Part shown: piece after piece, positions 3,520-42,649 of the stretch
How the letters are laid out: each line of letters starts with the position of its first letter
Position numbering within the stretch: the stretch's first letter is position 1
Assembly: GCA_009930415.1 (NCBI GenBank)
Contig: RZYG01000002.1
Coordinates: forward strand, 1 to 47,902
Length of the DNA: 47,902 nucleotides
Direction: 5' to 3'
Origin: Spartobacteria bacterium
GTDB lineage: Bacteria > Verrucomicrobiota > Kiritimatiellia > CAIQIC01 > Lenti-01
Notes under the pieces: model-generated
What the model was told of the DNA's origin: nothing
Database searches by the model: none
Seen by the model: the letters and a program-made list of their open reading frames with translations, nothing else
Translations under genes and position numbers: made by a program

Positions 3520-4644
3520 TCAGGCCTTCGCCATCATTGCGCGGAAGCGGGCGAAAGCGGAGATGGCGTCGCGGGGGCCGGGAGCGGCTTCGGGGTGGTA
3601 TTGCAAGGAAAACGCGGGAACCTTCTTTGCTTCCAGGCCTTCGACGGTGCCGTCGTTGAGGCTGACGTGAGTGATTTCCGCCACGGCCGGATCGAGACTG
3701 TCGGCCGCGACCACGTAGTTGTGGTTCTGGGAAGTGATTTCGACCGTGCCCGCGCGCAGGTCCTTGACCGGGTGGTTGCAGCCGTGGTGGCCAAACTTGA
3801 GCCGGCAGGTCCGGCCACCGAGCGCGAGCCCCAGCAACTGGTGTCCGAGGCAAATGCCCATGATGGGCACCTTCCCCAGCAGGCCGCGGATGGTTTCGGC
3901 CGCGTACGGCAGGGCCGCGGGATCGGCTGGACCGTTGGAGAGCATCACGCCCGCCGGATTCAGCGCCAGCACGTCGGCGGCGGGGACATGGGCGTTGAGC
4001 ACCCGCACGCGGAAGCCTTCGCGCTCCAGCAGGCGCAGGGTGTTGAACTTGATGCCGCAGTCCAGCACGGCCACGAGCGGCGCATTCGCCAGCAGCTCGC
4101 CCGTCCAGTCGTAGGCGACCGGCGTGGACACCTTGGAGGCGTAGTCCTGCCCGTCGAGCCCTTCCCAGGCGCGCGCCTGGGCGACGGCTTCCTCCGGCGA
4201 AACAGCGCCCGTGGCGCACAAATAGGCCTTCTGCGTGCCGCCCTCGCGCAACCGGAGGGTCAAGGCGCGCGTGTCGATGCCCGCCAGCGCGGGCACCTGC
4301 CAGCGGTTCAGCGCCGCTTCGAGGGTTTCTTCCGACCGCCAGTTGGAGGGCGGATTCCATTCGCGCACGATCAGACCGGACGCATGGATGGCCGCGGACT
4401 CGTGGTCTTCGCGGTTGAAGCCCGTATTGCCGATTTCCGGCATGGTCAGGGTGACGAGCTGCCCGGCGTAGGACGGATCGGTCAGGATTTCCTCGTAGCC
4501 GGTCATGCCGGTGTTGAAGACGACTTCGCCGAGGCGGTCGACGGCCGCGCCGCACGACCAGCCCCGGATCACGGTGCCGTCCGCCAGCGCCAGGAAGGCT
4601 TTCTTCTCCCGCCGCGCGGCCCAGTTGCGCGAAAAACCGCTCAT
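3520..4644 (-). CDS. carA: carbamoyl-phosphate synthase small (glutaminase) subunit
   Basis: Last 374 codons of ORF 3520..7227, starting MSGFSRNW. CPSase small-subunit N-domain ([21 protein letters not shown]) and class-I amidotransferase motif GICLGHQLL. Its ATG overlaps the carB stop (ATGA at 4641-4644). Confidence 0.9.
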
Positions 4645-9593: not shown

Positions 9594-9683
9594 GCTGCCC
9601 TCCTGCGCGCGGTGCCTCCGGCTTGCGCTGCGGAGGGCATTCTTCGCGCGCCTTCATCCTAGATGGCCTGCCATTCGAAGCAC

Positions 9684-9714
9684 AAGGCCTGGTTCCGAAA
9701 AGGAACCAGGCCTT
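9684..9714 (-). terminator. 13-bp perfect hairpin just beyond the displaced tRNA-Met 3' fragment (probable native tRNA terminator)
   Basis: AAGGCCTGGTTCC-GAAAA-GGAACCAGGCCTT. It lies 10 nt downstream (minus sense) of the orphan tRNA 3' end. No clear U-tract. Confidence 0.4.
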
Positions 9715-9719
9715 GCGCG

Positions 9720-9773
9720 AAGAATGGTAGCGGGGCTTGGATTTGAACCAAGGACCTTCAGGTTATGAGCCTG
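9720..9773 (-). repeat. attL: orphan 3' portion of tRNA-Met (54-bp direct repeat)
   Basis: Identical to 21740-21793 (AGAATGGTAGCGGGGCTTGGATTTGAACCAAGGACCTTCAGGTTATGAGCCTGA). Identity stops at 9774/21794 and at 9719/21739. Confidence 0.9.
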
Positions 9774-9828
9774 AACGGAAGCGTTCATTTCTTCTGATTT
9801 ACTGGGGATTTCTTATTTTTCCTGTGCC

Positions 9829-9852
9829 TGTGTGGGTGAATGTGTGGGGTTT
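9829..9852 (+). promoter_or_regulatory. TGTGTGGG(G/T) repeats (candidate arm-type integrase sites, left arm)
   Basis: TGTGTGGGT at 9829-9837 and TGTGTGGGG at 9841-9849. The 23-bp block GTGTGGGTGAATGTGTGGGGTTT (9830-9852) recurs at 21626-21648. Confidence 0.45.
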
Positions 9853-9920
9853 TTTCTTGCGCTTTGTTTCCATCCGGTGCATTGTTTTTCCAGATGATAA
9901 GGAATTGAAAGGGTAAGTCA

Positions 9921-11531
9921 ATGGCGCTGGAATTAAGAAGACAACGGGACGGAACGCTGCGTGATTGTTGGTATGGCCGATTCACCGGCGCAGACGGCAA
10001 ACAGAATGTGATCAACCTGAACGTCATGTGGCAGGGCAATCCGCCGGAGTCCGGCAGCATGCGCGACAAGGGGGATGAAAAGTTTGAGCGCAGCCGGGAA
10101 CGCGCGGAACAGGCGCTGGCCGCGCACGTGGATGAAGCACGACACAAAGGCAGGGCAGAGAACCTGACGGAACGTCTGATCGAATCGAAGACCGGGCGCG
10201 CCGTGGAATATGTCCGGATCGAAGACCTGCCGCAGCGCTGGCGCACGCTGGGCCGAGATGCGCCGGTGTCCGAAACGTACCTGCGCGGGTGCGATGCTCA
10301 ATTCCGGCGGTTCGCGGAATTCATGCGGCAGCGGAATCCAAAAGCGGCGCACCTGTACGAAGTCACGCCGGCGGATGCGGCGGCATTCATTCAGGCATGC
10401 CAAGCTACCCTAGCGCCTAGCACGGCAACCGATGCCCGGAAACTGCTTTCAAAGGCATTCGAGAAATTCCTGCCGGTGGGCACGGTCAACCCGTTTTCCA
10501 CGTTCATCCGCAAGCGCAGCAACGGTGACGACGGCGTGGTTCATCGTGCGCCGTTCACGCCGGTGGAACTGGCGCGGCTGCTGGTAGCGGCACAGACTGA
10601 TCCGTTCATGCACCAGCTGATCGTGTGCGCGGCAATGACCGGGATGCGCCGTGGCGACGTGTGCAACCTGCGATGGGAATCCGTGGATATGGCCGGCAAT
10701 ATGATCACGGTGAAGACAAGCAAGACGGGCGGCAAGGCAGAGATTCCCATATTCCCGCCGCTACGCGCCGTGCTGGAAGCGTCCGGTGGCAAGGGCAAGG
10801 GGTTTGTCTGGCCGGAAGCTGCGGCGATGCTGGCGGCGAATCCTGACGGGCTGACGTGGCGGTTCAAGAAGATCGTGGCGGCAGCATTCACGCAAGACGG
10901 GACCCACCTGCTGCCGAGTCTGACGCCGGCGGCAGACGTGGAATCCGAAGGGCTGGCCGCTATCCATGAGAAGGTCCGGCCGGGGGCGCGGCGGGACCGC
11001 ATGGTGGAAGTGCTGACCCGCTACTGCGCCGGCCAGAGTGTCCGGCAGATTGAACGGGAACTGGGCGTGGCGCGCGCGAACGTGTCAACCGATCTGCACC
11101 ATGTAGAGACATGGACCGGCAAGCGGTTTGTGGGCGCTGGGATCAGGTCTGCGGGGATCAAGTCTGCCGTGGCGCGCCTGACCCGGATCGATCGCGCGAA
11201 CGGCCAGCGCGCAGCATCCGTCCGGGACTGGCACGCACTGCGGACAACGTGGGTGACGATGGCGCTGCGGTCCGGCGTGCCGATGGACGTGCTGCGGCGA
11301 GTGACCGGCCATGCCACGGTTGAAGTGGTGCTGAACAACTACGATCAACGGGACCGGGAAGACTTCCGGGCGGTCCTGAACGGCGCGCTGCCGGCGGTCC
11401 TGACGGGTGGTGCTGGCAAGTCCAAGCCGACTGCCGCCGATGAACTGGCCGGACTGATCGGCAAGGTGCAAGCCGGGACCGCGACGGCCGCCGATCGCAA
11501 ACGGCTGCGGCTGCTGGCGGCGAAAGTGTAG
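9921..11531 (+). CDS. int: tyrosine recombinase / integrase
   Basis: 536 aa. Catalytic residues appear in order: R (MTGMRRGD), K (VKTSKTGG), HxxR (WHALRTT), H (TGHATVEV), Y (LNNYDQR). Adjacent to attL. Confidence 0.85.
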   Translation: MALELRRQRDGTLRDCWYGRFTGADGKQNVINLNVMWQGNPPESGSMRDKGDEKFERSRERAEQALAAHVDEARHKGRAENLTERLIESKTGRAVEYVRIEDLPQRWRTLGRDAPVSETYLRGCDAQFRRFAEFMRQRNPKAAHLYEVTPADAAAFIQACQATLAPSTATDARKLLSKAFEKFLPVGTVNPFSTFIRKRSNGDDGVVHRAPFTPVELARLLVAAQTDPFMHQLIVCAAMTGMRRGDVCNLRWESVDMAGNMITVKTSKTGGKAEIPIFPPLRAVLEASGGKGKGFVWPEAAAMLAANPDGLTWRFKKIVAAAFTQDGTHLLPSLTPAADVESEGLAAIHEKVRPGARRDRMVEVLTRYCAGQSVRQIERELGVARANVSTDLHHVETWTGKRFVGAGIRSAGIKSAVARLTRIDRANGQRAASVRDWHALRTTWVTMALRSGVPMDVLRRVTGHATVEVVLNNYDQRDREDFRAVLNGALPAVLTGGAGKSKPTAADELAGLIGKVQAGTATAADRKRLRLLAAKV

Positions 11532-11535
11532 AGCA

Positions 11536-12090
11536 ATGAAACCGATGCTGGCGAAAATGTACGATGGCCGCGATCCTGCCGGGTGGTGGATCAGTGAAAA
11601 GCTGGACGGCGTGCGCGCTATTTGGACCGGCGCGGAATTGCGCGGCAGATCGGGTCTGCGGTTCAACCCGCCGCAGTGGTTCGCGGCGCAGTTGCCGGCC
11701 GGGGTGGCGCTGGACGGCGAACTGTGGGCCGGACGGAATGCCCTTGGGAAAACCGTTGGTGCCGTGGTGTCGAAACATGGCGCAGACGAAAAGTGGCGCA
11801 GCGTGCGGTTCATGGTCTATGACGCGCCACTGGCAACCGGCGGATTTGAAGACCGGCTGGCCGTCGCCGCAACCGTCGTTGCCGGGTCAACCATTGCCAA
11901 GGTGCTAGAACAGCGCCGCTGTGCTGGCCGTGTCGACTGCGCCGAATTCTTGAACGAGGTGCTGGTGCAGGGTGGTGAAGGCGTGGTGCTGCGCGCGGCT
12001 GGATCGGCCTATGAAGGCAAGCGGTCTGCGGCAATGCTGAAGTTGAAACCGGGCGAAGGCGCAGAGGCACTGCGGAACCGTGCGGAATGA
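11536..12090 (+). CDS. ATP-dependent DNA ligase, nucleotidyltransferase domain only (OB-fold missing; possibly a truncated remnant)
   Basis: 184 aa. Motifs I SEKLDGVRA, III LDGELW, IIIa FMVYDA, IV EGVVLR, V MLKLKP. The stop comes 12 codons after motif V. The gene begins 4 nt after the int stop. Confidence 0.7.
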   Translation: MKPMLAKMYDGRDPAGWWISEKLDGVRAIWTGAELRGRSGLRFNPPQWFAAQLPAGVALDGELWAGRNALGKTVGAVVSKHGADEKWRSVRFMVYDAPLATGGFEDRLAVAATVVAGSTIAKVLEQRRCAGRVDCAEFLNEVLVQGGEGVVLRAAGSAYEGKRSAAMLKLKPGEGAEALRNRAE

Positions 12091-12197
12091 ACAGTGTGTG
12101 GTATATTAAAACAACGCTGCCGGGTAGCTACCGGCGGAAGTCCTGGCGCGTGTCCGCTTACACGGCGCGCGCTGGGCATTCTGTAAGGAATGACGAA

Positions 12198-12989
12198 ATG
12201 AAAAAGACGAAGACAACGAAGCGCACCGAACCGGCCGCAGTCAATCAATCAGCGTGGCCGGAAATATCCAAAGAGCGGGACCGGGAACTGCGGCGGATTG
12301 CGGAACTGAAGGTTCGCGCGACGGATGAAGACTTTGACCCGGTGCTGCATGAACTGGGGCAAGCAATCACAGCAGGCACAGCTACGGCAAAAGATCGGGA
12401 CAAATTCACCCGGCTGCTGAATGCGCGATGGAAAAAACCCACAACCACCTATGTTGCCGAGTTGAATTCCGAGTTTGAAGCGGAACGGGTGCAACGCCAT
12501 GTTGCCGTTATTATTGGCAACCGCAACGCTGAAGCGGCAAGGAAAATTGCAGCCGAACGGGACCGCATGGCCGCAGTGAACATGGATAGCGTGCTATCTG
12601 CGATTAGCGGCAAAAATGTGCCGGTGTATCAGGCAACGCCAAAGCGCAAGACGCCGTGGACCGTCGAAGAAATTGACCGGCTATCAAAAGACCGGCGGCA
12701 ACCGTGGATGAACGTGCTGCTGGCATTCAGCCGGGCAAGCGGAAACGAGGGTGAACGATGGTTGGCGGTTGCCTATCGAATACAGACCTGCCTGATGGAA
12801 ATACCAAAGCAGCGCCAATTAAATCCGCGCGCGCAGCCGGTCTGTGAATATCTGACACGGGCGCAGGTGGACGAATGGTTGGAGAAGATGCGCAGCACTT
12901 CCAGCATTCAATTCACCAGACAGCTTGCCAGCGCACTGCGCCGAAATTTGCAGCGCAAGCCTGCAATTATACCAAAGGCCAGCAGATAA
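12198..12989 (+). CDS. hypothetical protein (263 aa)
   Basis: ATG 12198 preceded by AAGGA. Charged helical sequence with no family recognised. Followed by an intrinsic terminator. Confidence 0.6.
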   Translation: MKKTKTTKRTEPAAVNQSAWPEISKERDRELRRIAELKVRATDEDFDPVLHELGQAITAGTATAKDRDKFTRLLNARWKKPTTTYVAELNSEFEAERVQRHVAVIIGNRNAEAARKIAAERDRMAAVNMDSVLSAISGKNVPVYQATPKRKTPWTVEEIDRLSKDRRQPWMNVLLAFSRASGNEGERWLAVAYRIQTCLMEIPKQRQLNPRAQPVCEYLTRAQVDEWLEKMRSTSSIQFTRQLASALRRNLQRKPAIIPKASR

Positions 12990-12992
12990 TAC

Positions 12993-13152
12993 TGGACCAC
13001 AAGTGGACCAACGGCCGGGTATTTTGCCCGGCCTTTTTCTTTTGCCGGGTGCTGCGATTGTGCCCGTATTTATTGGGCGGAATCAATCCGCTGCCGGTAT
13101 CTGCGCGCGCTGGACAACTTCAATGTCCACAACCCGCCCCGCTTTGTGGACA
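12993..13152 (+). promoter_or_regulatory. array of TGGAC(C)A half-sites around the terminator and upstream of the xis-rep gene block (candidate operator region)
   Basis: TGGACCA at 12993 and 13004. TGGACA at 13111 and 13147, and TGTCCA at 13124. Inverted repeat GTCCACAA-N11-TTGTGGAC (13125-13151). AT-rich TTAATGC x2 at 13158-13173. Confidence 0.35.
13013..13043 (+). terminator. intrinsic terminator
   Basis: GGCCGGG-TATTTTG-CCCGGCC followed by TTTTTCTTTT, 24 nt after the stop at 12989. Confidence 0.75.
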
Positions 13153-13217
13153 TAAATTAATGCGGTTTAATGCCCACATGAAAAACGAGGAACAACTCAC
13201 GAACGCGAGGGCACGCA

Positions 13218-13520
13218 ATGAACGCAAAAACATTTAACACCATGAGCAAGTCAGACCTGCTGGTTCACATTGCCGGACTGCCTGACAGTGACGCGCGCAT
13301 TCCGGCGCTGGCCGCAACCCTGCTGGGCGGTCCGCAGCAATCCGGGCCGGCACCGCTGCGCCTGTTTCCGATGGGCAAGGCAGCCGAGGCGATGGGATGC
13401 AGCCGGCCTACTCTCTGGCGGATGATTCGTGACGGGCAGGTGCGGACGGTTGAATTGAAACCCGGCATGCGGCGGGTGCCCGAATCCGAACTGCGCAGAA
13501 TCGCGGCGGGTGACAAGTGA
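13218..13520 (+). CDS. AlpA/excisionase-type HTH DNA-binding protein
   Basis: 100 aa. C-terminal segment MGKAAEAMGCSRPTLWRMIRDGQVRTVELKPGMRRVPESEL resembles the HTH_17/AlpA-Xis family. Alternative start at ATG 13242. Confidence 0.65.
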   Translation: MNAKTFNTMSKSDLLVHIAGLPDSDARIPALAATLLGGPQQSGPAPLRLFPMGKAAEAMGCSRPTLWRMIRDGQVRTVELKPGMRRVPESELRRIAAGDK

Positions 13521-13605
13521 AGGCGGCGCGCGTGGATTCACTCACCGTTGTGCTGGTGGTCTGCTTCGCGCTGCTGCTGGCTGTTTTGATCGGAAGGGCA
13601 CTGGC

Positions 13606-14622
13606 ATGAACATTCAGAAAATCAACCTGGACCTGCTAACGGACAAAGACGGCAGCGGCAAGTGGGCGCAATTCAATGAAACCGGAGTGCGAGAATGCTG
13701 TGGACCGCTTACAATTTGCGATTATGCCGACGAGATGACCGAAGGCAGTGCCTTCCCGCCGGTGGTGTTGTTCTACGATGGGCAGCGGTACTGGATCGCA
13801 GACGGATTTCACCGGATCGCTGCGGCCGAACAGTGCGGATTCAAAGAGATTGAAGCGGACGTGCGTGAGGGCACCCGGCTGGATGCGGTCTGGTTTGCGC
13901 TAGGCGCGAACCGGCAGCATGGCAGGCGGATGACCCATGATGATCGGATTGCGGCCGTCAAGCGGGGCGTGATCGAATTCCAAGTGCGCAGCAATCGAGA
14001 GATTGCGCGGCAGATCGGCTGCGATGACAAGACCGTGGCGGCAGTCCGGGCCAGTCTGGAATCAACTGCGGAAATTCCGCAGTTGGACAGGACCGTGGGC
14101 GCGGACGGCAAGGCGCGGCCGGCGAAGCGGGAATCCAAGGCACAGACCGTCGAACCGTCGGCGGCCATAGTCACCAGCAAATCGTTCGCGGAATCGTACC
14201 GTGCCGACAATGCCGCTGCCGACGATGAACCCGCTGCGGCCGATCTGGTGTCATTCCTTCCGGCTAACGGTCAGGTGGCAAGTGCGTTTGTGGAAGCAAG
14301 CGCAAGCCCGGACGGGAACACGCACTGGTTTCTGCTTCAGGAGGATTCCCGCAATCCGGGTTTCTTCTTTGCCGTCCATGTCGATTTCGGCGAGGACGAT
14401 ACAGACGGCCGCATTGACTTCAATATGCGCGCATTCCGGGCCGATGCCTTTGCCGACGATCGCCTGTCGCCGATAGCGCGCTGGGCCGCCGGCATTCCGG
14501 GCGTGAAATTGTCGTGGGATGCCACTGACGAATCGCCTGATTGGTTGTGGGCTGGATTCATTGAACCTTTCCTGCCGGACCGGATGGCGCACGTGAAGCG
14601 CACGAAGACAACCGAGGCGTGA
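13606..14622 (+). CDS. ParB/sulfiredoxin-domain protein with HTH and acidic C-terminal domain
   Basis: Starts MNIQKINLD. ParB N-domain core PPVVLFYDGQRYWIADGFHRIAAA, then HTH SNREIARQIGCDDKTVAAVR. The C-terminal half is of unknown family. Confidence 0.7.
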   Translation: MNIQKINLDLLTDKDGSGKWAQFNETGVRECCGPLTICDYADEMTEGSAFPPVVLFYDGQRYWIADGFHRIAAAEQCGFKEIEADVREGTRLDAVWFALGANRQHGRRMTHDDRIAAVKRGVIEFQVRSNREIARQIGCDDKTVAAVRASLESTAEIPQLDRTVGADGKARPAKRESKAQTVEPSAAIVTSKSFAESYRADNAAADDEPAAADLVSFLPANGQVASAFVEASASPDGNTHWFLLQEDSRNPGFFFAVHVDFGEDDTDGRIDFNMRAFRADAFADDRLSPIARWAAGIPGVKLSWDATDESPDWLWAGFIEPFLPDRMAHVKRTKTTEA

Positions 14623-14629
14623 TCCTGCC

Positions 14630-14797
14630 ATGAAGAAAAAGCGCAGCACGTTCATCGATCCAAACGACCGCAGCATTCCGCTGGGCAAGCGCAAGGTGGC
14701 GCTGGTCAAGTTTCTGATGCGCAAGGGGCATTCATTAGACGAGGCAAAGCTGATTTGCAGTCGAAAATTCTACCACGAAGAACGGAGCGCATGGTGA
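14630..14797 (+). CDS. small basic hypothetical protein (55 aa)
   Basis: Not in the supplied ORF track (short). Sequence: MKKKRSTFIDPNDRSIPLGKRKVALVKFLMRKGHSLDEAKLICSRKFYHEERSAW. Starts 7 nt after the parB-like stop; its TGA overlaps the primase ATG (ATGGTGA). Confidence 0.45.
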   Translation: MKKKRSTFIDPNDRSIPLGKRKVALVKFLMRKGHSLDEAKLICSRKFYHEERSAW

Positions 14798-17520
14798 CTG
14801 CCGCAACACTCAAACCTGATGCCGGGATGATCGATCAATTCCTGCGCACGATCGTGCAGCCGGGGAACACGTTTGAAATCCGCGCGCTGCGGGTTCGGCA
14901 GCGGTATGGGAAACCGGCTACCCAAAGCGGGTACTTCACCACCGACAGCATTGATGCCGCCGTGAAATGCATCTACGCACTGGACAGTAGTAGCAGTCCC
15001 GGCGGGATTTATATGACGATCAATCCGCCAGTTGAAGCGGTAGGGGCGCGGAGGCTGGGCCGGATGGACCGGGCAGACACCGGCGAGACAACGAACGACC
15101 ACGAGGTTTTCCGGCGCACTACCCTGCTGATCGATGGCGATCCTGTCCGGCCAGCCGGTATCAGTGCAACCGAAGACGAACACGCTGCCGCACTGGGCCG
15201 GGTTCAGCAAATTAATGCCGACCTATCCGCTGCCGGATGGCCTGATCCGGCGGTGGTGGATTCTGGAAACGGTGGGCAACTCTGGTATCGGATCGACCTG
15301 CCTGCGGATGATGGCGGTCTGGTGCAGCGGTGTCTGGCGGCGCTGGGCGCGCGCTACGATGACGCACAGGTTCACGTCGATCAAACGGTGTTCAACCCTG
15401 CCCGGATCGGCCGCATTCCCGGCACCGTCAACCGCAAGGGCGACAACGTGCCGGACCGTCCGCACCGGCTGGCGCGGCTGCTGTCCATGCCGGAAAAGTT
15501 TGAACCGGTGCCGACTGATCTGCTGGAAGAACTGGCCTGTGCCTGTGCCGGGGATGCCGCTGCGTCTGCAAAACCGAAGAAGACACCGGCGCAACCTGCC
15601 GCGAATTCCGCCAAGTCCGCGCGCGTGAATCTGTTTGGATGGACCCGCGAGCGATTCGACAGCCTGATCATGGATCACCTGCTGGACTACGATCCGGGCG
15701 AACCGAAAGACTATCGGGGCGGGGTTCGGGTCAAGCTGAAGACCTGCCCGTTCGATCCAGCGCACGTCGATTCTGCCGCTGTGTTTTTCAGCGATGACCG
15801 GGGCGCTGCGTTCAAATGTCTGCACAACGGGTGCAAGGACAATAAATGGCGCGATATGCTGGAACAGATAGGGGTGGATGCGGAACCGCAATTTTCGTCA
15901 AAAAACTACTACGGGAACGCACAGGCATTTGTCGGGGAAACCTATCCCGCCGGCCTGATTCATCATGATGCCGGGTTCAGGCACCACGTCGGGACCCACT
16001 ACGCAATGACCGACGAAGCGGCTGCGCGCGCTGCATTGTGGCGATGGCTGGCCGGCCAGAAAATCCAGTTGCAGACGGGCGGAACGGCATCATTCCGACC
16101 GAACAGTAGCACGGTGTCAAACACGCTTGACGCACTGAAGGCGGTTGCCAACGTGCCCACAGAATTGCGGCCGCCGTGCTGGTTGCCGGGGCACGCCGGA
16201 CCCTGCGCTGCGGACCTGCTGGCATTCCGCAATGGGTTGATGCACCTGCCCACCGGAGAGCAGCACGCGCACACACCTGGACTGTTCAACACCTTTGTGC
16301 TGCCGTTCGATTATGACCCGGCAGCGCGCGCGCCGCACTGGGCTGCATTCCTTCAGACGCTGTGGCCGGATGACCCGGAATCCATTTTCACGCTGAAGCT
16401 GATGTTCGGCTATCTGCTGGGCGGCGGGACCTACCTGCAAAAAATCTTCCTGTTGGTTGGTCCGAAGCGGTCAGGCAAGGGCACGATTGCGCGCGTTCTG
16501 GGCGAACTGCTGGGAGAGGATGCCGTGTGCGGTCCGACGCTGGCGGGGCTGGCCGGTCCGTTTGGGTTGCAGACGCTGCTGGACAAGCGGCTGGCAACGA
16601 TCAGTGATGCGCGCCTGTCTTCACGGGCGGATCAGGCGCAGATTGCCGAACGGCTGCTGACAATTTCCGGTGAAGACGTGGTTAGCGTGCCGCGAAAATA
16701 TGAGCGCGACTGGTGCGGGAGACTGCCGACACGGTTTCTGATCCTCACCAACGAACTGCCGAGGCTGGCCGATTCATCCGGCGCACTGGCGTCCCGGTTC
16801 ATCGTGCTGGCCATGCACCGTTCTTTTTTCGGCCGGGAGGATCACGGGCTGGCAGACCGATTGAAGGCCGAACTGCCGGGAGTTGCGAACTGGGCGGTCG
16901 AGGGCTGGCGAGAACTTCAGCGTCTGGGCCGGATCGAGTTGCCAGCATCCGCGCGGGAGTCAATGGAGGAACTCTACGATCTGGGATCACCGGTGGCGGC
17001 ATTCGTTCGCGACCGCTGCACCGTAGGGTCAGGCCAAAGCGCCGAACGCCGTGCCATGTATGCTGAATGGTGTTCATGGTGCTATGACGAAGGGCGGCAG
17101 CATCCCGGCACTGCCGAATCGTTCGGGCGGGACCTGCGCGCCGTTGTTCCAAGTCTGCGAACGAGCCAACACCGCACACCCACCGGCGACCGGGTGCGCT
17201 GCTATGAAGGGATTGCGCTGGGCGTTGACTGGCACAGGCTGGAACAGGATGGCACAGGCGCTGGCACAGGCGCAGCGGTTTCGGAACCTGTTGCAATTCA
17301 GGGGGATATTGCGCTGGCACAGGCTGGCACAGGTGATTTCCATACTCTTTGCAAAAACAGCGACAAGGGAGAGAGAGAGGAAAGAGAGAGAGAAGGAAAA
17401 AGCTGGGGAAACAATAGAGATTTGCCTGTGCCACCCTGTGCCACCTGTGCCGCTGACGGCATGGAAGACGGTGACGCGCTGGACCTGCTGGACACCGTGG
17501 AACGGGGTGCAACGCTGTGA
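14791..17520 (+). CDS. bifunctional primase-polymerase (AEP-like) / D5-P4-type SF3 helicase
   Basis: 909 aa from ATG 14791. AEP-like motifs LLIDGD, SGNGGQLWYR and RIPGTVNRK. Zinc motif CPFDPAHV...CLHNGC. Walker A LVGPKRSGKGT and Walker B-like RFLILTNE. Confidence 0.8.
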   Translation: MVTAATLKPDAGMIDQFLRTIVQPGNTFEIRALRVRQRYGKPATQSGYFTTDSIDAAVKCIYALDSSSSPGGIYMTINPPVEAVGARRLGRMDRADTGETTNDHEVFRRTTLLIDGDPVRPAGISATEDEHAAALGRVQQINADLSAAGWPDPAVVDSGNGGQLWYRIDLPADDGGLVQRCLAALGARYDDAQVHVDQTVFNPARIGRIPGTVNRKGDNVPDRPHRLARLLSMPEKFEPVPTDLLEELACACAGDAAASAKPKKTPAQPAANSAKSARVNLFGWTRERFDSLIMDHLLDYDPGEPKDYRGGVRVKLKTCPFDPAHVDSAAVFFSDDRGAAFKCLHNGCKDNKWRDMLEQIGVDAEPQFSSKNYYGNAQAFVGETYPAGLIHHDAGFRHHVGTHYAMTDEAAARAALWRWLAGQKIQLQTGGTASFRPNSSTVSNTLDALKAVANVPTELRPPCWLPGHAGPCAADLLAFRNGLMHLPTGEQHAHTPGLFNTFVLPFDYDPAARAPHWAAFLQTLWPDDPESIFTLKLMFGYLLGGGTYLQKIFLLVGPKRSGKGTIARVLGELLGEDAVCGPTLAGLAGPFGLQTLLDKRLATISDARLSSRADQAQIAERLLTISGEDVVSVPRKYERDWCGRLPTRFLILTNELPRLADSSGALASRFIVLAMHRSFFGREDHGLADRLKAELPGVANWAVEGWRELQRLGRIELPASARESMEELYDLGSPVAAFVRDRCTVGSGQSAERRAMYAEWCSWCYDEGRQHPGTAESFGRDLRAVVPSLRTSQHRTPTGDRVRCYEGIALGVDWHRLEQDGTGAGTGAAVSEPVAIQGDIALAQAGTGDFHTLCKNSDKGEREEREREGKSWGNNRDLPVPPCATCAADGMEDGDALDLLDTVERGATL
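17229..17452 (+). promoter_or_regulatory. iteron-type candidate origin of replication inside the 3' end of the primase-helicase gene
   Basis: Six direct (C/A)TGG(C/A)ACAGG repeats at 17229, 17239, 17249, 17261, 17314 and 17324. A 38-nt polypurine tract at 17365-17402. Three inverted CCTGTGCC repeats at 17425, 17435 and 17444. Confidence 0.5.
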
Positions 17521-17774
17521 ACACTTCGCCCGCCCAAACCCTGCGCGCGCACGGCGTGGAACTCTACGTTGCGCCGTCTGGCCGGCTACGCTACCGGGCA
17601 CCGGCAGGCGCACTGACTTCAACGCTGCGGGACCTTGTGCTGGAAGTGGCGCTGCAATTCGAGGAACGGGCCGCGATCAGGGAATTCGATGGCGGCATGG
17701 ACCGGGCGACGGCCGAACGTCTGGCCGCTGCCGATCTGCTGGGCGTGCAGGATGAACAAGGGGCGAAAACATGA
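17517..17774 (+). CDS. small protein with TubC_N-like docking motif
   Basis: 85 aa; GTG start overlaps the primase stop (GTGA). LRAHGVELYVAPSGRLRYRAPAGALTSTLRDLV resembles the TubC_N motif. An ERAAIREFDGGMDRATAERLA segment follows. Confidence 0.5.
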   Translation: MNTSPAQTLRAHGVELYVAPSGRLRYRAPAGALTSTLRDLVLEVALQFEERAAIREFDGGMDRATAERLAAADLLGVQDEQGAKT

Positions 17775-17883
17775 GCGCAACCCGTTGCAGTGCAGTTGGA
17801 TACCCTCCCCCGGTAGGTTCTCGGCCGGGGGGCGGCGCGCGGTACCTCCCTCCCCGTAATGCTTGCAGTAGAGTGACTTACGC

Positions 17884-19908
17884 ATGACCACCATAAAGAC
17901 CAAAAAGAAGCCATACAGACAGGCCGCCAAACCCGCACGGAAACCGCCCACCACGGCCGCCGAACGGGTGGCGGCGCAGGTCAACAGGTCCAACTGCGTG
18001 GTGCTGAAACCCTGCGCCGATCCAGAGCGCCGGGCAAGACTGGAAGCGGACCCGGTGGCGTGGTTGCAGTGGTATCTGCACCAGACGTACACACGGCCGT
18101 TTGAGCGTCCGCACCGGGAGATCGTGGCGGGAGTGCTGCGCGCCCATGAGACCGGGGGCCGGTTTGTGGTGGCGGCTGAACGTGGAATCGGCAAGTCCGC
18201 GATTCTGTGGGGCATGGTGCTGCTGCTGGCGTTGACTGGCCGCCGGCGCTTTCCCGTCTGTGTGCCGTGGGCGGATCGTGCTTTGAAACGCGCGTTTCGA
18301 TTCTGGCGCAATGCGCTTTGCTTCAATGAAAGACTGCTGGCGGATTATCCTGAATTCTGCCTGCCGTTCGCGCACGCCAAAGGCACACCGCAAAAGGTCT
18401 GCAACGTCTGGTGGGAGCATAGCGGCCAGAAGACCGGGGCGCAGTTGACTGTCGGGGAAGGTTTGATTGTGCTGCCTGATCAGCGCGGGTGCATGGGCGG
18501 GTCAACGATCAATGCGAACGTGCGCGGCCTGAATCACCCGATGGAAGACGGCACGATTCTGCGGCCGGACATTGTTCTGCTGGATGACGTGCAAGACCGC
18601 AGCGTTGCCAAGTCGCCGGCGCAGGTGGCGGACACGGTTTCCATCATAGATGGCGACGTGGCCGGGTGCGGCGATTCAGGCAAAGACCTGCCGTTGTTGA
18701 TGGCGGCAAACTGCATCGGGCCTGAAGACGTGGCGCAGCACTATCTGAACCACCAAGACTGGCACGCGCTGAAAATTCCCTGCATCGTGCGATGGCCTGC
18801 GGACTGGGATGAACCGGACAGCCGGTCCCGTGCGCTGTGGGCGGAATGGCATGAAGCATTCCAAGCCGGCGGCGACGAACGCGCGCTGGCGTTCTTTGAT
18901 TCACACCGGGCCGAACTGGTCAACGGCATGGAACTATCAGCGCCGGCAGCGTTCGCGGTTTCGGGCAAGTGCGCTGATCCTTTTTATGGAGTGATAAAGA
19001 TGTTTCACCGGATGGGCCGGGAAGCGTTCATGGCCGAACGGCAGCAGGAACCCATTGATCAGATTGCCGAGGCCGGACCCTACCACCTGACTGCGGACGT
19101 AGTGCTGCGGCGGGTTGATGCGCAGCGCAAACCGCTGGAACGTCCGCAATGGGTGACGCGGGTGCTGGCATCCAGTGACGTGAATCCGTCCTACGGGTTC
19201 AGCAGTGTGGTGCTGGGGTTCGGGGAAGATCAATCCGCTGCGGTCCTGTGGTACGGGATTCACAAGCTGGCGATTCCAGGCGATCTGCCGGCGCTGGAAC
19301 TGGGGCGGCGACTGTTCGCGGAACTGACCGCCCACGGCAAGGCGCTGGCCGGGCTGCCCGTGGGCGTGGAACAGTGGGCGATTGACGCAGGCGGCGGGAA
19401 CTTTGACGGGGTGCTGGCGTTCGCGGCGGCAGCGTCGAGGGTGTGCGGAATTCCGGCGCTTGGATTCACGGGGCGCGGCGCGAAAAACTACCGGCAGACT
19501 GGCAAGACCGCTGCGGGTCCGTTTCGGGAACAATGCCACGGGTGCCTTGACCATAAGGACGGCCGGGCAATTCGGTGGGTGGCGTGGAATTCAGACTATT
19601 GGAAAGAGTGCGCGCAGCGCGCATGGCTGGGCGAGATCGGCGCGCCGGGGGCGTTGTCACTGCCTGCCGGGATGCACGGTGAGTTTTCGGCGCAGGTGAC
19701 GAATGAACGGCTGCTGGGCAAGGGTGACGTGGGCGGCCAGACGTTCTGGAACTTCAAGCGGCTGCCGGGGCGCAATGATTTTGGCGATGCACTGGCGCAG
19801 GGCTATGCGCTGGCCGCGTTCGGGTTCGGGATCGGAACAAGCGGCCGGCAGCGGATCGGTCAGGCGCGCAGGCCGAAACCCTCAATCAGGATGGTGAAGA
19901 TGCGCTGA
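17884..19908 (+). CDS. large terminase-like ATPase/nuclease (GpA-like)
   Basis: 674 aa. Walker A VVAAERGIGKS. Arginine-finger/Walker B block GSTINANVRG...RPDIVLLDDVQD. The C-terminal half has acidic motifs (VLASSDVNPS, WAIDAGGGNFDG) compatible with an RNase H-like nuclease. Length is typical of GpA-type TerL. Confidence 0.55.
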   Translation: MTTIKTKKKPYRQAAKPARKPPTTAAERVAAQVNRSNCVVLKPCADPERRARLEADPVAWLQWYLHQTYTRPFERPHREIVAGVLRAHETGGRFVVAAERGIGKSAILWGMVLLLALTGRRRFPVCVPWADRALKRAFRFWRNALCFNERLLADYPEFCLPFAHAKGTPQKVCNVWWEHSGQKTGAQLTVGEGLIVLPDQRGCMGGSTINANVRGLNHPMEDGTILRPDIVLLDDVQDRSVAKSPAQVADTVSIIDGDVAGCGDSGKDLPLLMAANCIGPEDVAQHYLNHQDWHALKIPCIVRWPADWDEPDSRSRALWAEWHEAFQAGGDERALAFFDSHRAELVNGMELSAPAAFAVSGKCADPFYGVIKMFHRMGREAFMAERQQEPIDQIAEAGPYHLTADVVLRRVDAQRKPLERPQWVTRVLASSDVNPSYGFSSVVLGFGEDQSAAVLWYGIHKLAIPGDLPALELGRRLFAELTAHGKALAGLPVGVEQWAIDAGGGNFDGVLAFAAAASRVCGIPALGFTGRGAKNYRQTGKTAAGPFREQCHGCLDHKDGRAIRWVAWNSDYWKECAQRAWLGEIGAPGALSLPAGMHGEFSAQVTNERLLGKGDVGGQTFWNFKRLPGRNDFGDALAQGYALAAFGFGIGTSGRQRIGQARRPKPSIRMVKMR

Positions 19909-19982
19909 AGATTTACCGGCGGCGCGTTTGCCGGCGGGATTGAGAAAACAGAAAGCCGGGAATCCGGCAGAAAGATACGAGC

Positions 19983-20216
19983 ATGAAAAAGACAATGACC
20001 ATACGACGCACGGCGACACTAGCCAAAGCACAGCCGAGCAAGGCGCGGCCGGTCAAGCCGACACCGAGCAAGGCGGAACAAGACTTCAATAAGGCGGCAG
20101 AACTCCGGCGCAAGTTTCCGCTGGTGGCATCCACACCGGCAGCAAAGCGCCGTGCGCTTCAGGCTGCAAAAGCCTATGGCACGGAATTGACCGCGCGGAA
20201 AGCAGGCAAGCGATGA
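19983..20216 (+). CDS. small basic hypothetical protein (77 aa)
   Basis: K/R/A-rich. Its stop overlaps the next start (ATGA at 20213-20216). Confidence 0.5.
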   Translation: MKKTMTIRRTATLAKAQPSKARPVKPTPSKAEQDFNKAAELRRKFPLVASTPAAKRRALQAAKAYGTELTARKAGKR

Positions 20217-20713
20217 AGGACCTTGAAAACAAATCTTCTGCCGAACTGCGGCAGATGCTGGATGACGTGCAGCGGGAAGAAAACCGGACCAGCGTGCAGA
20301 TCACAGAGTGCATGGAAAACCACGACCTGTCTGCAAAGGCAACGGACAAGTTTTCCCGGCTGCAAACGCACAACCATCTGCTGTGGGTTCGCGGCGAGCA
20401 AATCCGCCGGCGGCTGGCGATTGTCGAGCGTGATGAATTCGCGGCAGAGGCGGAACGGCTGCGCGGCGACATTCAGCGGTTGGAAACCGAACACGCTGCT
20501 GCGATTGAAAAAACGTTCGCGGCGGTTTATCCGGTGCTGAAATACCGGGAGCAGGTTGATCACGAATGGCACAAGCGCCGGGAACATGAGGTTCGGCATT
20601 TTTGCCGGACTTCGCACGGTCCCGGCCAAATTGAGGCACAAATCCACGACACGAAAGCGCGACTGGCCGACATTCAGCGCGCGCTGGAAAAAATGGAGGG
20701 CAAGCAAGCGTGA
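20213..20713 (+). CDS. coiled-coil hypothetical protein (166 aa)
   Basis: Heptad-like charged sequence throughout. Translationally coupled to the upstream ORF. Confidence 0.55.
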   Translation: MKDLENKSSAELRQMLDDVQREENRTSVQITECMENHDLSAKATDKFSRLQTHNHLLWVRGEQIRRRLAIVERDEFAAEAERLRGDIQRLETEHAAAIEKTFAAVYPVLKYREQVDHEWHKRREHEVRHFCRTSHGPGQIEAQIHDTKARLADIQRALEKMEGKQA

Positions 20714-20963
20714 AGACTTGGCGCGCCACCGCACTGCCTGCGGAATCCCCCCGTCCCGTCCGGGCAAATGGCGTGCCTGACGGGAAGCGCAAGGCGCAGC
20801 GGATTGTCTGCCGCTGCTACCTTCGACCGGCTGCCGCTGCCGGGCGCGAAAGCGGAAGCGCGAGGGGTTGACGGAGTGTTCACCGGCAATCCTTCCACGG
20901 GCCGCCACCACCTGCGCGACGGTGGCACTATTTGAACCGAGCAACCAAACCAACGAGGACACC

Positions 20964-21386
20964 ATGACAAAGAAAACAAAGACGGATCAGCGGCCGGCAA
21001 CGGTCTGCCAACTATGCGGACGGCGCTGCGGCCGGGATTCGTGCCACTATACGCGCGGCAAGATAATCACCTGCCAAGACTGCGAACGAACCGGAACGGG
21101 GTTTATCCATGCGCCTGAAATCGTGTTCAGCGGGAATCCGATTCACAATGACACGATCGGCAGCCTGCGGGAACAAATCGAATACTGCGCCGGCACCGTA
21201 GACCTGGAGCTGGGCGGCATCGTCAACCGGCTGCGCGGAGAATTCCCGAAAGCGCCGGAACGTCTGCTGTGGATCATTGCCAAGTTTGATCCATACCGGG
21301 GAGATAAAGCGCAGCACAACCTGCGGGAGATTTCACGCCTGCGCCGCCGAATGCGCCGGCTGCGAATGAAGCGCGCGCACAAATAG
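20964..21386 (+). CDS. C4 zinc-finger protein (140 aa)
   Basis: ATG 20964 preceded by GAGGA. CQLC-x18-CQDC near the N-terminus. Basic C-terminal tail RLRRRMRRLRMKRAHK. Confidence 0.6.
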   Translation: MTKKTKTDQRPATVCQLCGRRCGRDSCHYTRGKIITCQDCERTGTGFIHAPEIVFSGNPIHNDTIGSLREQIEYCAGTVDLELGGIVNRLRGEFPKAPERLLWIIAKFDPYRGDKAQHNLREISRLRRRMRRLRMKRAHK

Positions 21387-21545
21387 ACTTTGGCCGGGAT
21401 CGCCGGCACCGCGCGTTTGACTTTCCGGGCGATGCGGTCCGGCGGCACCGGCCGCTTTCCAGTCGCCGGTCAACTGCAAGATAACGCAGTTGGATGATGC
21501 GCCTGCGGTCTGCGGACCGTGGGGCTTTTTTTGTGCCGAAAATAT

Positions 21546-21648
21546 TGTGTGGGGCCTGTGTGGGGATTTTTCGGCGGTCGAACCGGCGGGTCTTCGGGTT
21601 TATTTTGACCGCTATTGTGTGGGGCGTGTGGGTGAATGTGTGGGGTTT
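21546..21648 (+). promoter_or_regulatory. TGTGTGGGG repeats (candidate arm-type integrase sites, right arm)
   Basis: TGTGTGGGG at 21546, 21557, 21616 and 21637, plus the variant GTGTGGGT at 21626. Same orientation as the left-arm copies. Confidence 0.45.
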
Positions 21649-21702
21649 ATCTGTCGATTTCTGGGCATTTCTGGGCGTTTTCGGCCTTGCCAAACGGACA
21701 TT

Positions 21703-21738
21703 AGAAAAACCGCGCAACTCGTTGGAGTCACGCGGTTT
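21703..21738 (-). terminator. element-borne hairpin terminator for the reconstituted tRNA-Met
   Basis: Minus sense: AAACCGCG-16 nt-CGCGGTTT followed by TTCTAA, starting 5 nt after the tRNA 3' end. Its sequence differs from the native hairpin at 9684-9714. Confidence 0.5.
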
Positions 21739-21739
21739 A

Positions 21740-21793
21740 AGAATGGTAGCGGGGCTTGGATTTGAACCAAGGACCTTCAGGTTATGAGCCTGA
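21740..21793 (-). repeat. attR: 54-bp direct repeat forming the 3' part of the intact tRNA-Met
   Basis: Identical to 9720-9773. Confidence 0.9.
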
Positions 21794-21820
21794 CGAGCTG
21801 CCGGGCTGCTCCACCCCGCA
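21744..21820 (-). tRNA. tRNA-Met (anticodon CAT), initiator-like
   Basis: 77 nt: TGCGGGGTGGAGCAGCCCGGCAGCTCGTCAGGCTCATAACCTGAAGGTCCTTGGTTCAAATCCAAGCCCCGCTACCA. Position 1:72 is mismatched (U:U) and there is an A11:U24 pair, as in bacterial initiators. Only two of the three canonical G:C pairs are present at 29-31:39-41. Confidence 0.85.
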
Positions 21821-35780: not shown

Positions 35781-35863
35781 GCCCGGGTGGCGAAATGGCA
35801 GACGCAAGGGACTTAAAATCCCTTGGCCGAAAGGCCGTGTGGGTTCGACCCCCACCCCGGGCA
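35781..35863 (+). tRNA. tRNA-Leu (anticodon TAA), CCA not encoded
   Basis: Acceptor GCCCGGG/CCCGGGC. Anticodon stem AGGGA/TCCCT with loop CTTAAAA. Variable arm with GGCC-GAAA-GGCC hairpin. T-arm GTGGG-TTCGACC-CCCAC. Discriminator A. Confidence 0.9.
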
Positions 35864-35893
35864 CGTTTGCGCGGCGCAGAGGAGGAAACGACG

Positions 35894-37144: not shown

Positions 37145-37159
37145 AAAGGGAACTCCGCC

Positions 37160-38101: not shown

Positions 38102-38106
38102 ACCCC

Positions 38107-38173
38107 GGCGCGCTGGGCCAGCGCGCCCTACCGCATCTGGATCCATGGGTAGGGCGGCCTGGCCCAGGCCGCC
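38107..38173. repeat. REPIN-like doublet B
   Basis: GGCGCGCTGG-G-CCAGCGCGCC-CTACC, 14-nt spacer, GGGTAG-GGCGGCCTGG-C-CCAGGCCGCC. Confidence 0.6.
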
Positions 38174-38242
38174 GTTGTTCGAAAACCCGCCCCTAAACGC
38201 TTGCCACCGGCCGGTTCCCGGCCTATAAATGCCCGGCTAAAT

Positions 38243-39637: not shown

Positions 39638-39643
39638 TGAATC

Positions 39644-39720
39644 GGACGCCTCGGAGAGGCGTCCCTACCTTTTCGATTTGCGCCTTGCGGCTGCGGTAGG
39701 AACCGCTCTCCGAGCGGTCC
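39644..39720. repeat. REPIN-like doublet C
   Basis: GGACGCCTC-GGA-GAGGCGTCC-CTACC, 25-nt spacer, GGTAG-GAACCGCTC-TCC-GAGCGGTCC. Confidence 0.6.
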
Positions 39721-39807
39721 GAAATCCACACTGTGCTGCCAGCCCCGCCTTCTCGCTTTCATTTCCTTGGCCCGAAAGCTATATTGGGGGTGCGGGAGAA
39801 GGCCATC

Positions 39808-42474: not shown

Positions 42475-42589
42475 GGCGATACCCTGGTTTTGGGCGTGCC
42501 CGGCCGTCCATTCATCCAGCGGTTCCAGCTTCGCGGCTCGCCAATAATCACTAGAATACAGGACTGACCCCTTTTCTGACCCCTTTTGG
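42421..42589. repeat. MITE-like element with ~35-40 bp composite terminal inverted repeats
   Basis: Left end: CCAAAAGGGGTCAGTCCCGAAAAGGGGTCAGTCCCGTATT. The right end reverse-complements to CCAAAAGGGGTCAGAAAAGGGGTCAGTCCTGTATT. About 90-bp AT-richer core. The flanking GCCCGCC/GGCGGGC extends the symmetry to 42414-42599. Confidence 0.55.
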
Positions 42590-42601
42590 GTGGGCGGGCA
42601 T

Positions 42602-42627: not shown

Positions 42628-42649
42628 CTCGTTCGGCCTTGCGGCCGGC

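Follow-up and report, generated by a model that had tools for sequence, protein, structure and literature searches.

We report the analysis of an integrated island of 12 kb in the genome of a Spartobacteria bacterium, which lies in a tRNA-Met gene and encodes, together with genes for its own integration and replication, the large subunit of a phage terminase (TerL). The DNA examined, referred to throughout as the window, is a stretch of 47,902 nucleotides (nt) covering positions 1 to 47,902 of contig RZYG01000002.1 (GenBank assembly GCA_009930415.1), read on the forward strand. An initial annotation, made from the letters of the window alone, had proposed that the island is a candidate phage satellite, and that proposal is supported here at the level of a candidate, whose dependence on a helper phage and whose packaging we infer. 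Contigs and genomes that carry related loci are denoted by the letter L and a number.

The island and its genes

The island is delimited by a perfect direct repeat of 55 bp, found by a repeat search and by direct reading, and between the two copies lie 12 open reading frames (ORFs), all of them on the plus strand and with coupled overlaps at 14791 (ATGGTGA), 17517 (GTGA) and 20213 (ATGA), exactly as had been annotated. The features of the island and of its borders are listed below; aa denotes amino acids and HTH a helix-turn-helix domain.

9680 to 9718, minus strand: host terminator-like hairpin 3' of the displaced orphan tRNA-Met fragment (17-bp stem, -35.8 kcal/mol, z -9.4)
9720 to 9774, no strand: attL core, the 3' 50 nt of an orphan tRNA-Met plus 5 nt, a perfect repeat of 21739 to 21793
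9836 to 9852, plus strand: left arm-type repeat GTGAATGTGTGGGGTTT, an identical 17-mer standing again at 21632 to 21648
9921 to 11531, plus strand: tyrosine integrase (Int), 536 aa (PF00589, 4e-13; phrog_1, 2e-34)
11536 to 12090, plus strand: adenylation domain only of an ATP-dependent DNA ligase, 184 aa (positions 31-208 of 283 of NF006592, 1.3e-51; KxDG motif, no oligonucleotide-binding domain)
12198 to 12989, plus strand: orf3, 263 aa from the start supported by homologues (300 aa from 12087), no family match
13013 to 13033, plus strand: terminator-like hairpin between the int-lig-orf3 group and the string of genes from xis to o140 (9-bp stem, 7 GC pairs, T-rich tail)
13218 to 13520, plus strand: Xis/AlpA-like HTH_17 protein, 100 aa (PF12728, 7e-7; TIGR01764 excisionase; phrog_66)
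13606 to 14622, plus strand: ParB/Srx-like protein, 338 aa from the start called in L033 (the ORF opens at 13510; phrog_1033, 1e-14; ParB structure 7o0n in the PDB, 2e-5)
14630 to 14797, plus strand: s55, a 55-aa ORF whose stop overlaps the primase start (ATGGTGA), no family match, conserved in L033, L044 and L122
14791 to 17520, plus strand: P4-family primase/superfamily 3 (SF3) helicase, 909 aa (TIGR01613, 153.8 bits against a cutoff of 108.7; D5_N; DUF5906; phrog_6088, 3e-69)
17229 to 17444, no strand: iteron array of six direct and two inverted CTGGCACAGG-like 10-mers, probable replication origin
17517 to 17774, plus strand: s85, an 85-aa ORF coupled to the primase stop and always directly upstream of TerL, with a weak TubC_N match only
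17775 to 17883, plus strand: TerL leader, non-coding and conserved, common to phage contigs, candidate cos or regulatory site
17884 to 19908, plus strand: GpA-type large terminase (TerL), 674 aa, intact (PF20454; phrog_38; structure prediction and Foldseek)
19983 to 20216, plus strand: s77, 77 aa, very basic, with 91-100% amino acid conservation in clade-A islands (defined below), no family match
20213 to 20713, plus strand: o166, 166 aa, all-helical, core gene of the clade-A islands (eight homologues at 54-93%), no family match
20964 to 21386, plus strand: o140, a CxxC...CxxC zinc ribbon of 140 aa from the ATG supported by homologues (172 aa from TTG at 20868), no family match
21502 to 21523, plus strand: terminator-like hairpin closing the long gene string, from a hairpin search
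21543 to 21665, plus strand: right arm-type repeats of the GTGTGGGG family, including the 17-mer at 21632 to 21648, from a repeat search
21707 to 21738, minus strand: element-supplied terminator hairpin for the rebuilt tRNA-Met (14-bp stem and U5 on the tRNA strand, -22.4 kcal/mol, z -5.8)
21739 to 21793, no strand: attR core within the functional tRNA-Met, a perfect repeat of 9720 to 9774
21744 to 21820, minus strand: intact tRNA-Met(cat) (ARAGORN; Rfam RF00005, 59.8 bits; CCA encoded)

The ORF at 17884-19908 is a genuine and intact large terminase of the GpA type, as the initial annotation had supposed. Its match to PF20454 (GpA_nuclease) reaches 24.3 bits against a cutoff of 22.5, it matches phrog_38 'terminase large subunit' at 3e-14 over residues 45-396, and it keeps all the invariant residues of a family alignment of 43 sequences, including G101, G103 and K104 of Walker A and DD234-235 of Walker B. 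A search of the PDB by sequence, with the TerL profile, gave no match and the identity was settled by comparison of folds: the AlphaFold 2 model (predicted local distance difference test score, pLDDT, of 87) has as its top Foldseek matches, at E-values from 2.5e-12 to 1e-9, large terminases exclusively, namely those of PhiV-1 (8dgc_E), Sf6 (gp2), T4 (gp17) and HK97 (TerL). Homologues of the protein also lie directly upstream of phage portal and capsid genes. Since its relatives in cultured phages are only about 24% identical to it, the phage family in question is essentially uncultured. Two of the homologues, P0025 and P0084, are about 1,090 aa long and contain intein/homing-endonuclease domains (PF05204, PF14528); inteins are frequent in phage terminases.

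Virion genes were looked for beside this terminase with several kinds of profile. Searches of the island ORFs against Pfam, PHROGs, NCBIfam and PADLOC gave no match to capsid, portal, protease, tail, lysis, relaxase or type IV secretion system (T4SS) genes, and the scans of the orphan ORFs against Pfam and PHROGs, at thresholds of E <= 0.01-0.1, gave no capsid, portal or relaxase signal, in keeping with what had been annotated. Portal and capsid hidden Markov models (HMMs), derived from proteins of related phages, found no match anywhere in the window. By these four HMM libraries and the local portal and capsid HMMs, the island is without virion structural genes of its own, as a phage satellite would be, and it carries its own means of integration, excision and replication (Int, the Xis-type HTH protein, arm sites, primase/helicase and iterons). 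The structural remnants, relaxed selection and idiosyncratic end points that characterise a defective prophage are not seen, there being no fragments of structural genes; likewise the relaxase (with or without a T4SS) and coupling protein of an integrative mobilisable or conjugative element are without a Pfam or NCBIfam match among the island ORFs scanned. No island ORF matches Sid, Psu, Delta or Epsilon in Pfam or PHROGs, the zinc-ribbon protein o140 being without an Ogr/Delta match, and no match to the family of the small terminase subunit (TerS) or of the related Ppi, Cpm and Rpp was found among them. PADLOC reported no defence system except for one marginal match on the Xis ORF, and Rfam no RNA family besides tRNA.

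The island sits in the 3' half of the tRNA-Met gene, rebuilds the tRNA and brings with it a new terminator. The 5' 27 nt of the intact tRNA at 21744-21820 are host-derived and the 3' 50 nt lie inside the repeat; from the position that ARAGORN assigns to the gene, and its encoded CCA, the repeat therefore comprises tRNA nt 28-77 plus five trailer nt, where the initial annotation had nt 28-76 plus four. That annotation was right that the repeat is real and perfect, and erred in giving it 54 bp (9720-9773 and 21740-21793), its register being off by one base. It had also assigned separate hairpins to the orphan copy and to the rebuilt tRNA, and both (9680-9718 and 21707-21738) indeed fold far more strongly than shuffled controls; a right-end hairpin homologous to that at 21707-21738 is found in L044, L116 and L122. 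The GTGTGGGG repeat occurs five times in the whole window and every copy lies at the ends of the island, the pattern expected of integrase arm-type sites, which these end repeats probably are.

For replication, the island has the P4-family primase/SF3 helicase, whose call as a primase/helicase had been made correctly by the initial annotation, as had those of the integrase, the Xis-like HTH protein and the ParB-like protein, each of which has its family matches. The N-terminal 380 aa of the primase, for which the initial annotation supposed an AEP fold, have no HMM or PDB match, and a search of the PDB with the primase sequence also gave none. Within the primase gene, eight copies of CTGGCACAGG with at most one mismatch are clustered at 17229-17444, and there are 17 in the whole window against 3.2 expected, so that the iteron array noted in the initial annotation stands. 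Because the iterons are clustered and the array keeps its position in four relatives (L044, L034, L116 and L122), it is a probable origin of replication.

The other genes of the island are in part constant and in part exchangeable. The ligase-like ORF adjoins the integrase in every island variant, at 181-184 aa and with a ratio of nonsynonymous to synonymous substitution rates (dN/dS) of 0.23-0.31; what had been taken for a ligase remnant is instead a conserved ORF, comprising the adenylation domain with its KxDG motif intact and under selection, and it looks like a selected function rather than debris. By comparison of variants orf3 is a variable accessory slot, with a 55% identical homologue in L006 and an unrelated ORF of 427-433 aa in its place in L034 and L117; the ParB-like gene is swapped in the same two variants for an HTH_31 gene and a divergent 97-aa ORF on the opposite strand. 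Homologues of s85 are present in all clade-A islands and in L006. The model of o166 (pLDDT 86.5) contains one helix of 69 residues and has no significant fold match in BFVD or the PDB. The o140 family consists of four proteins, the window's own included, and those whose context is readable stand on island contigs. The two terminator-like hairpins at 13013-13033 and 21502-21523 suggest that there are two transcription units, the second of which would run from xis through primase and TerL to o140. Codons ending in A or T are commoner in the island, as had been remarked: G+C content at third codon positions is 0.60-0.75 in island genes and 0.77-0.90 in flanking genes.

Relatives of the terminase and mobility of the island

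More than 150 homologues of TerL were found in metagenomes, and their contexts, drawn from the encoding contigs, GTDB genomes, IMG/VR and metagenomes of the Joint Genome Institute (JGI), were classified with the portal and capsid HMMs; the scan of GTDB genomes contributed four loci, the genome of the window not being among the species representatives. In about 40 loci with at least 3 kb of sequence downstream, a portal gene of the Phage_portal_2 family follows TerL, nearly always at a distance of 0.3-2 kb, and a GP7/SU10-type capsid gene and tail-sized ORFs come next wherever capsid HMM or precomputed Pfam matches reach. These loci are ordinary tailed phages.

A different arrangement recurs in at least four distinct islands, which end just past TerL next to a tRNA (Met, Leu, Gly-gcc and Gly-ccc). 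The island of L010 (identical to L053 and L054), in a Verrucomicrobiota metagenome-assembled genome (MAG), is 8.2 kb long, lies between perfect 44-bp repeats of tRNA-Leu(taa) and reads int, a 154-aa ORF, HTH_17, a replication protein of the Toprim/AAA_25 type, a pair of ORFs of about 200 aa, TerL and tRNA, the flanking host genes being NadA, a permease and threonine synthase. TerL lies about 0.4 kb from tRNA-Gly(gcc) in L052, an 8.2-kb contig that begins 70 bp before an integrase, and at the same distance from tRNA-Gly(ccc) in L055; these two have in common with L010 a pair of ORFs of about 200 and 190 aa upstream of TerL, which was not seen in the phage loci. The TerL of the window itself belongs to a 36-member cluster at 90% identity, all of whose contexts are island-like. 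Its closest islands are those of L044 (12.04 kb, at the tRNA-Met of another genome), L117 (12.3 kb), L122 (12.46 kb) and L034, in none of which were structural genes found; these variants exchange orf3, the ParB-like gene and the region after o166 and stay within 12.0-12.5 kb, which is about one third of the 33-37 kb of the related phage contigs. That proportion agrees with the usual ratio of satellite to helper and is suggestive only. Many assemblies (L034-L043 and L047, corresponding to window positions from about 14500 to 20123) break exactly 215 bp past TerL and 100-300 bp before the primase, and from these shared break points a 5.4-kb core of primase, s85 and TerL seems common to co-occurring variants with different arms.

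Neighbour-joining analysis places the island TerLs in two clades that are nested among phage TerLs: clade A, of the window type, is sister to phage L003, and clade B (L010, L052 and L055) is sister to phages L014 and L048-L050. The closest tie to a phage is seen in L006, a 7-kb contig that encodes homologues of orf3 (55%), Xis (67%) and s85 (51%) and a D5_N primase upstream of TerL, and which is probably an island. L006 and the phage contigs L003-L005, which come from other samples, have in common a segment of 2,030-2,043 bp at 99.75-99.95% nucleotide identity, consisting of the TerL ORF with about 49 bp upstream and 10-24 bp downstream, and no other sequence. The leader of about 110 bp that precedes TerL in the window (17775-17883) aligns in conserved blocks between islands and phages L003 and L005, GAGTGACTTACG being invariant, and is a candidate cos or regulatory element.

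Some further observations concern the same loci. An identical TerL protein of 656 aa stands in two unrelated contexts, in phages L003, L004, L005 and L029 and in the island-like L006; L006 (ERZ27239183) and L029 (ERZ27239154) have neighbouring accessions in the European Nucleotide Archive, so that one study may have yielded both. More than 20 independent phage contigs, for example L002, L004, L008, L014-L016, L018, L025 and L048-L051, start 0-310 bp upstream of TerL, a coincidence which suggests a packaged genome terminus (cos or terminal repeat) at that place in this uncultured phage group. In L028, a 39.4-kb IMG/VR sequence whose TerL is 42% identical, no portal HMM match occurs within 9.9 kb downstream; the locus either has a portal of divergent sequence or represents one more atypical context. 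Between TerL and portal, the phages (L003 at 3729-3962, L018, L022, L076, L081 and L001) have a short ORF of 77 aa that specifies a CxxC...CxxC zinc ribbon. It was considered as a counterpart of o140 or s77 of the island and set aside, there being no detectable sequence similarity; the phage ORF and o140, which also opens with a zinc ribbon, may nevertheless be functional analogues.

The main genes of the island have dN/dS values of 0.11-0.35 overall. Between the window and its relatives, TerL gives 0.11-0.19 with dS of 0.06-0.11, the primase 0.14-0.19 with dS of about 0.16 and the integrase 0.18-0.35, and o166 and o140 come to about 0.28 in the more diverged comparisons; the dS of TerL is the lowest of all island genes in all but one of the pairwise comparisons. 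Clade-B TerLs give 0.06-0.21. The right part of the island is 93.6% identical in nucleotide sequence between L044 and the window, where the neighbouring carB genes are only 83% identical, so that transfer of the element, or an exchange of sequence, postdates the divergence of the hosts; in L044 carB lies on the other side of the tRNA and in the inverted orientation.

A contig with the joined ends of a related element was found in L116, a JGI contig of 12,375 bp that is 94% identical to the window from primase to o166. It has the right-end hairpin at 1488-1520, a single core at 1521-1580 and the left end of the element with int from 1581 onwards, its own arm-type repeat standing on both sides of the core (1411-1433 and 1631-1653), and it accounts for about 99% of a circle of 12.5 kb, from which about 143 bp are missing. 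The same left end is joined to the host hairpin in L117, L118 and L034. By its layout L116 is a junction of the attP type, from a circle, a replicating concatemer or a tandem array. The initial annotation would have given up its proposal for an island fixed and degraded in all relatives and without excision junctions; instead there are variants in another host, purifying selection and the L116 junction. Two other contigs were rejected as evidence of excision. L033, a Logan contig of 12,024 bp identical to window positions 9745-21768, might have been an excised circle and is put down to a break of the k=31 assembly graph 30 nt into each repeat, and L122, with a terminal overlap of 14 nt, shows a break like that of L033.

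A candidate satellite with its own terminase

Several known systems resemble the island in part. P4, whose helper is P2, is alike in its size of about 12 kb, about one third of the related phage genomes, in its tRNA site, tyrosine integrase and small HTH excision/regulator protein, and in its P4-family primase/helicase (TIGR01613); like P4 the island has no capsid, tail or lysis genes, and the set of tyrosine integrase, tRNA site and P4 alpha-type primase/helicase is complete in it. The island differs from P4 in that no homologues of Sid, Psu, Delta or Epsilon were detected, and in its host, which is Verrucomicrobiota-like where that of P4 belongs to the Enterobacteria. P4, which has a cos site, employs the terminase of P2 (PMC10690885), whereas the island, rather than depending on a helper's terminase, encodes an intact TerL. 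The phage-inducible chromosomal islands (PICIs; the Staphylococcus aureus pathogenicity islands, or SaPIs, and the EcCICFT073 type) have a terminal integrase, att repeats, a primase-replication gene with an adjacent iteron origin, an AlpA/Xis-type HTH protein, a length of 10-15 kb and a logic of packaging redirection, and all the elements of their layout (terminal integrase, att repeats, 10-18 kb, pri-rep with adjacent origin) are present here. PICIs redirect packaging by TerS, Rpp, Ppi or Cpm and rely on the TerL of the helper; the island, in contrast, carries the large subunit and no recognisable TerS-like gene or PICI packaging module, s85, s77, o166 and o140 being orphans. It also lacks, in the window, the divergent repressor of PICIs, although L034 and L117 have the HTH_31 gene and opposite-strand 97-aa ORF.

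The satellite classes reported with a large terminase of their own are the capsid-forming PICIs (cf-PICIs) and the Streptomyces satellites MulchRoom and MiniFlayer, in which TerL is part of a full head module with major capsid protein, portal, protease or scaffold, head-tail connectors, TerS and HNH; the island has TerL only and is thus unlike them. Virion-encapsidated integrative mobile elements (VEIMEs) have been reported integrated in marine Verrucomicrobia (PMC9618062), and the initial annotation, in holding that satellites were undescribed in bacteria of the Planctomycetes-Verrucomicrobia-Chlamydiae (PVC) group, claimed too strong a novelty at the level of the phylum. By the published descriptions VEIMEs and tycheposons are small, integrate in tRNA genes and have a tyrosine recombinase, a primase/helicase and sometimes a ligase, and tycheposon gene sets include lig, pri and xis. 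For packaging they have been reported to encode a small terminase subunit, 'motor-like ATPases' or a major capsid protein rather than TerL, and they are marine where the source of the window is apparently anaerobic and non-marine; the two are set apart by descriptions only. P4, PICIs, PICI-like elements (PLE) and VEIMEs are all described as relying on the TerL of a helper. In the literature searched, which was not exhaustive, we came upon no capsid-less satellite described as encoding a TerL, and wherever a satellite had one it was accompanied by a complete capsid module, as in cf-PICIs and the Streptomyces satellites; this bears out the earlier designation of the island as an undescribed type. 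The protein itself resembles the lambda gpA-type TerL of temperate tailed phages in its GpA nuclease domain, N-terminal ATPase with Walker A and B and terminase fold, and in related phages it lies directly upstream of the lambda-type portal (Phage_portal_2); the island gene is unlike these in being detached from the portal and capsid module and embedded in an island of integration and replication genes.

Because relatives have the same design, the most likely account is that of a new kind of satellite which brings its own packaging enzyme, and we lean, with modest confidence, towards reading the island as an integrative, helper-dependent phage satellite of a new type, whose large terminase is its sole morphogenetic gene. 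On infection or induction of a helper, Int and Xis would excise the element at the tRNA-Met core with the aid of the arm sites, and its own primase/helicase would replicate it from the iteron origin, TerL being co-expressed from the same long gene string. The satellite TerL would then dock on procapsids made by the helper, cutting and packaging satellite DNA, possibly from the leader of about 110 bp common to related phages and possibly assisted by its small conserved neighbours s85, s77, o166 and o140; capsid, tails and lysis would be supplied by the helper. As TerL must fit the helper portal, exchange of the cassette would keep it matched to the phages in circulation. Whether such islands form a satellite class of their own, associated with Verrucomicrobiota and Lentisphaerales, in which a helper-type TerL and probably a cos site or leader are the sole morphogenetic cargo, which has at least two origins (one for clade A, at tRNA-Met, and one for clade B, at tRNA-Leu and tRNA-Gly) and which is kept matched to its helpers by cassette exchange, we regard as an evenly balanced question.

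A number of points weigh against the satellite. No helper phage was found for the window-type clade, the nearest TerL in a phage context being 82% identical, and the flanks, which amount to 36 kb of the genome, contain no portal or capsid HMM match and no phage gene. Searches of IMG/VR with the att core, o166 and the primase returned no island-type contig that would speak for encapsidation. L006 stops 556 bp past TerL and could be a phage with a different early region. The length of L033 equals 11,964 plus 60, as a k=31 break at a 55-bp repeat predicts, and the L116 junction may come from a tandem array, or from an assembler's join through a 60-bp repeat, rather than from a circle. The island has no recognisable TerS, capsid-size or interference function, and we infer the step from having a TerL to packaging itself.

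Some of these points would sit as well with a plasmid-like element that integrates and replicates by itself, is not carried in virions and has co-opted TerL, for example for interference with phages or for processing its own concatemers. The full set of integration and replication functions, ParB-like protein, iterons and primase/helicase included, speaks for such an element, as do the lack of a recognisable TerS, of an established cos site or helper and of an island-type IMG/VR contig; packaging-interference genes are, moreover, frequent on satellites and islands (PMC11417361). We consider it unlikely, nonetheless, since a TerL of full length, with ATPase and nuclease motifs and under strong purifying selection, is more than a decoy needs, and since this TerL tracks those of phages, with a near-identical cassette in phage contigs and a common upstream leader. 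Nor does the element have a relaxase or T4SS to explain its spread between hosts, or any PADLOC match beyond the marginal one on the Xis ORF. Interference and satellite transfer are not mutually exclusive. A defective prophage, in which a phage of the order int-xis-rep-TerL-portal-capsid-tail lost everything past TerL by an internal deletion and is now inherited vertically and slowly decaying, would account for a gene order that is collinear with related elements up to TerL, for a TerL family that is otherwise borne by phages and for nearest contexts, cultured and uncultured, that are phages; a single deletion between TerL and attR would yield the present map. It is a decidedly improbable explanation for an end point just past TerL and beside att that is repeated in four or more independent islands, which differ in integrase, replication genes and tRNA target. 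Decay is also hard to square with ORFs that are all intact and under purifying selection, with a TerL that keeps all its catalytic residues and with variants that have diversified by exchange of modules and yet stay at 12.0-12.5 kb; vertical inheritance is equally at odds with an island more similar between two hosts than are their carB genes, with both att cores, arm sites and an attP-type junction present, and s77, o166 and o140 are island-specific and not fragments of portal or capsid genes.

The remaining alternatives give the island another vehicle. As an integrative mobilisable element it would be conjugated by a helper's relaxase acting on an unrecognised origin of transfer (oriT), with TerL as incidental cargo derived from a phage. 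Many tRNA-borne islands are mobilised in trans and an oriT may escape recognition by sequence alone; the island has, however, no relaxase, coupling protein or T4SS gene, and its TerL, the most conserved of its genes and the one constant among islands that have almost nothing else in common, fits poorly with incidental cargo, all of which makes mobilisation of this kind very improbable. That the island is a complete minimal virus or capsid-forming element, with capsid or portal hidden among orf3, the C-terminal half of the ParB-like protein, o166, o140, s77 and s85, is barely credible. Five to six ORFs are indeed without a family assignment, and HMM searches can miss capsid proteins. The unassigned coding sequence, however, amounts to only about 3 kb, and the clade-B islands of 8.2 kb leave still less room; orf3 is replaced by unrelated genes in sister variants and so is not a core gene, o166 is all-helical and has no fold match, and the HMMs from the portal and capsid proteins of related phages find no match.

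Should the satellite reading be correct, its interest lies in the packaging step. The capsid-less satellites of the literature searched take the helper TerL as given, and redirect packaging by small subunits, adaptors, inhibitors or mimicry of cos or pac; a satellite that replaces the motor-nuclease itself would represent a new solution to the problem of packaging specificity, and would predict the co-evolution of TerL and portal between satellite and helper. It would also explain 'orphan terminase' islands, which are debris to prophage finders and are not modelled by satellite finders, and would extend satellite biology to uncultured PVC bacteria of anaerobic habitats. An integrase, a replication gene and a terminal TerL beside a tRNA, with no portal, provide a search marker for further examples.

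The flanking genome

The flanks of the island encode carAB, an M28 peptidase, DUF2238, HydF, a radical-SAM protein and tetratricopeptide repeat (TPR) proteins. Positions 35781-47302 of the window are 75-80% identical in nucleotide sequence to the right flank of L010, the Verrucomicrobiota MAG, the left flanks not being syntenic, and by this similarity the PVC-type anaerobe of the initial annotation is a fair description of the host. The tRNA-Leu(taa) at 35781-35864, which in L010 is the att site of the 8.2-kb TerL island, is unoccupied in the window. A tRNA-Ser(gct) lies on the minus strand at positions 3-96, the very start of the window, and in one host background an AbiEii toxin gene with a 213-aa partner (L034, 44-868) stands directly outside attL.

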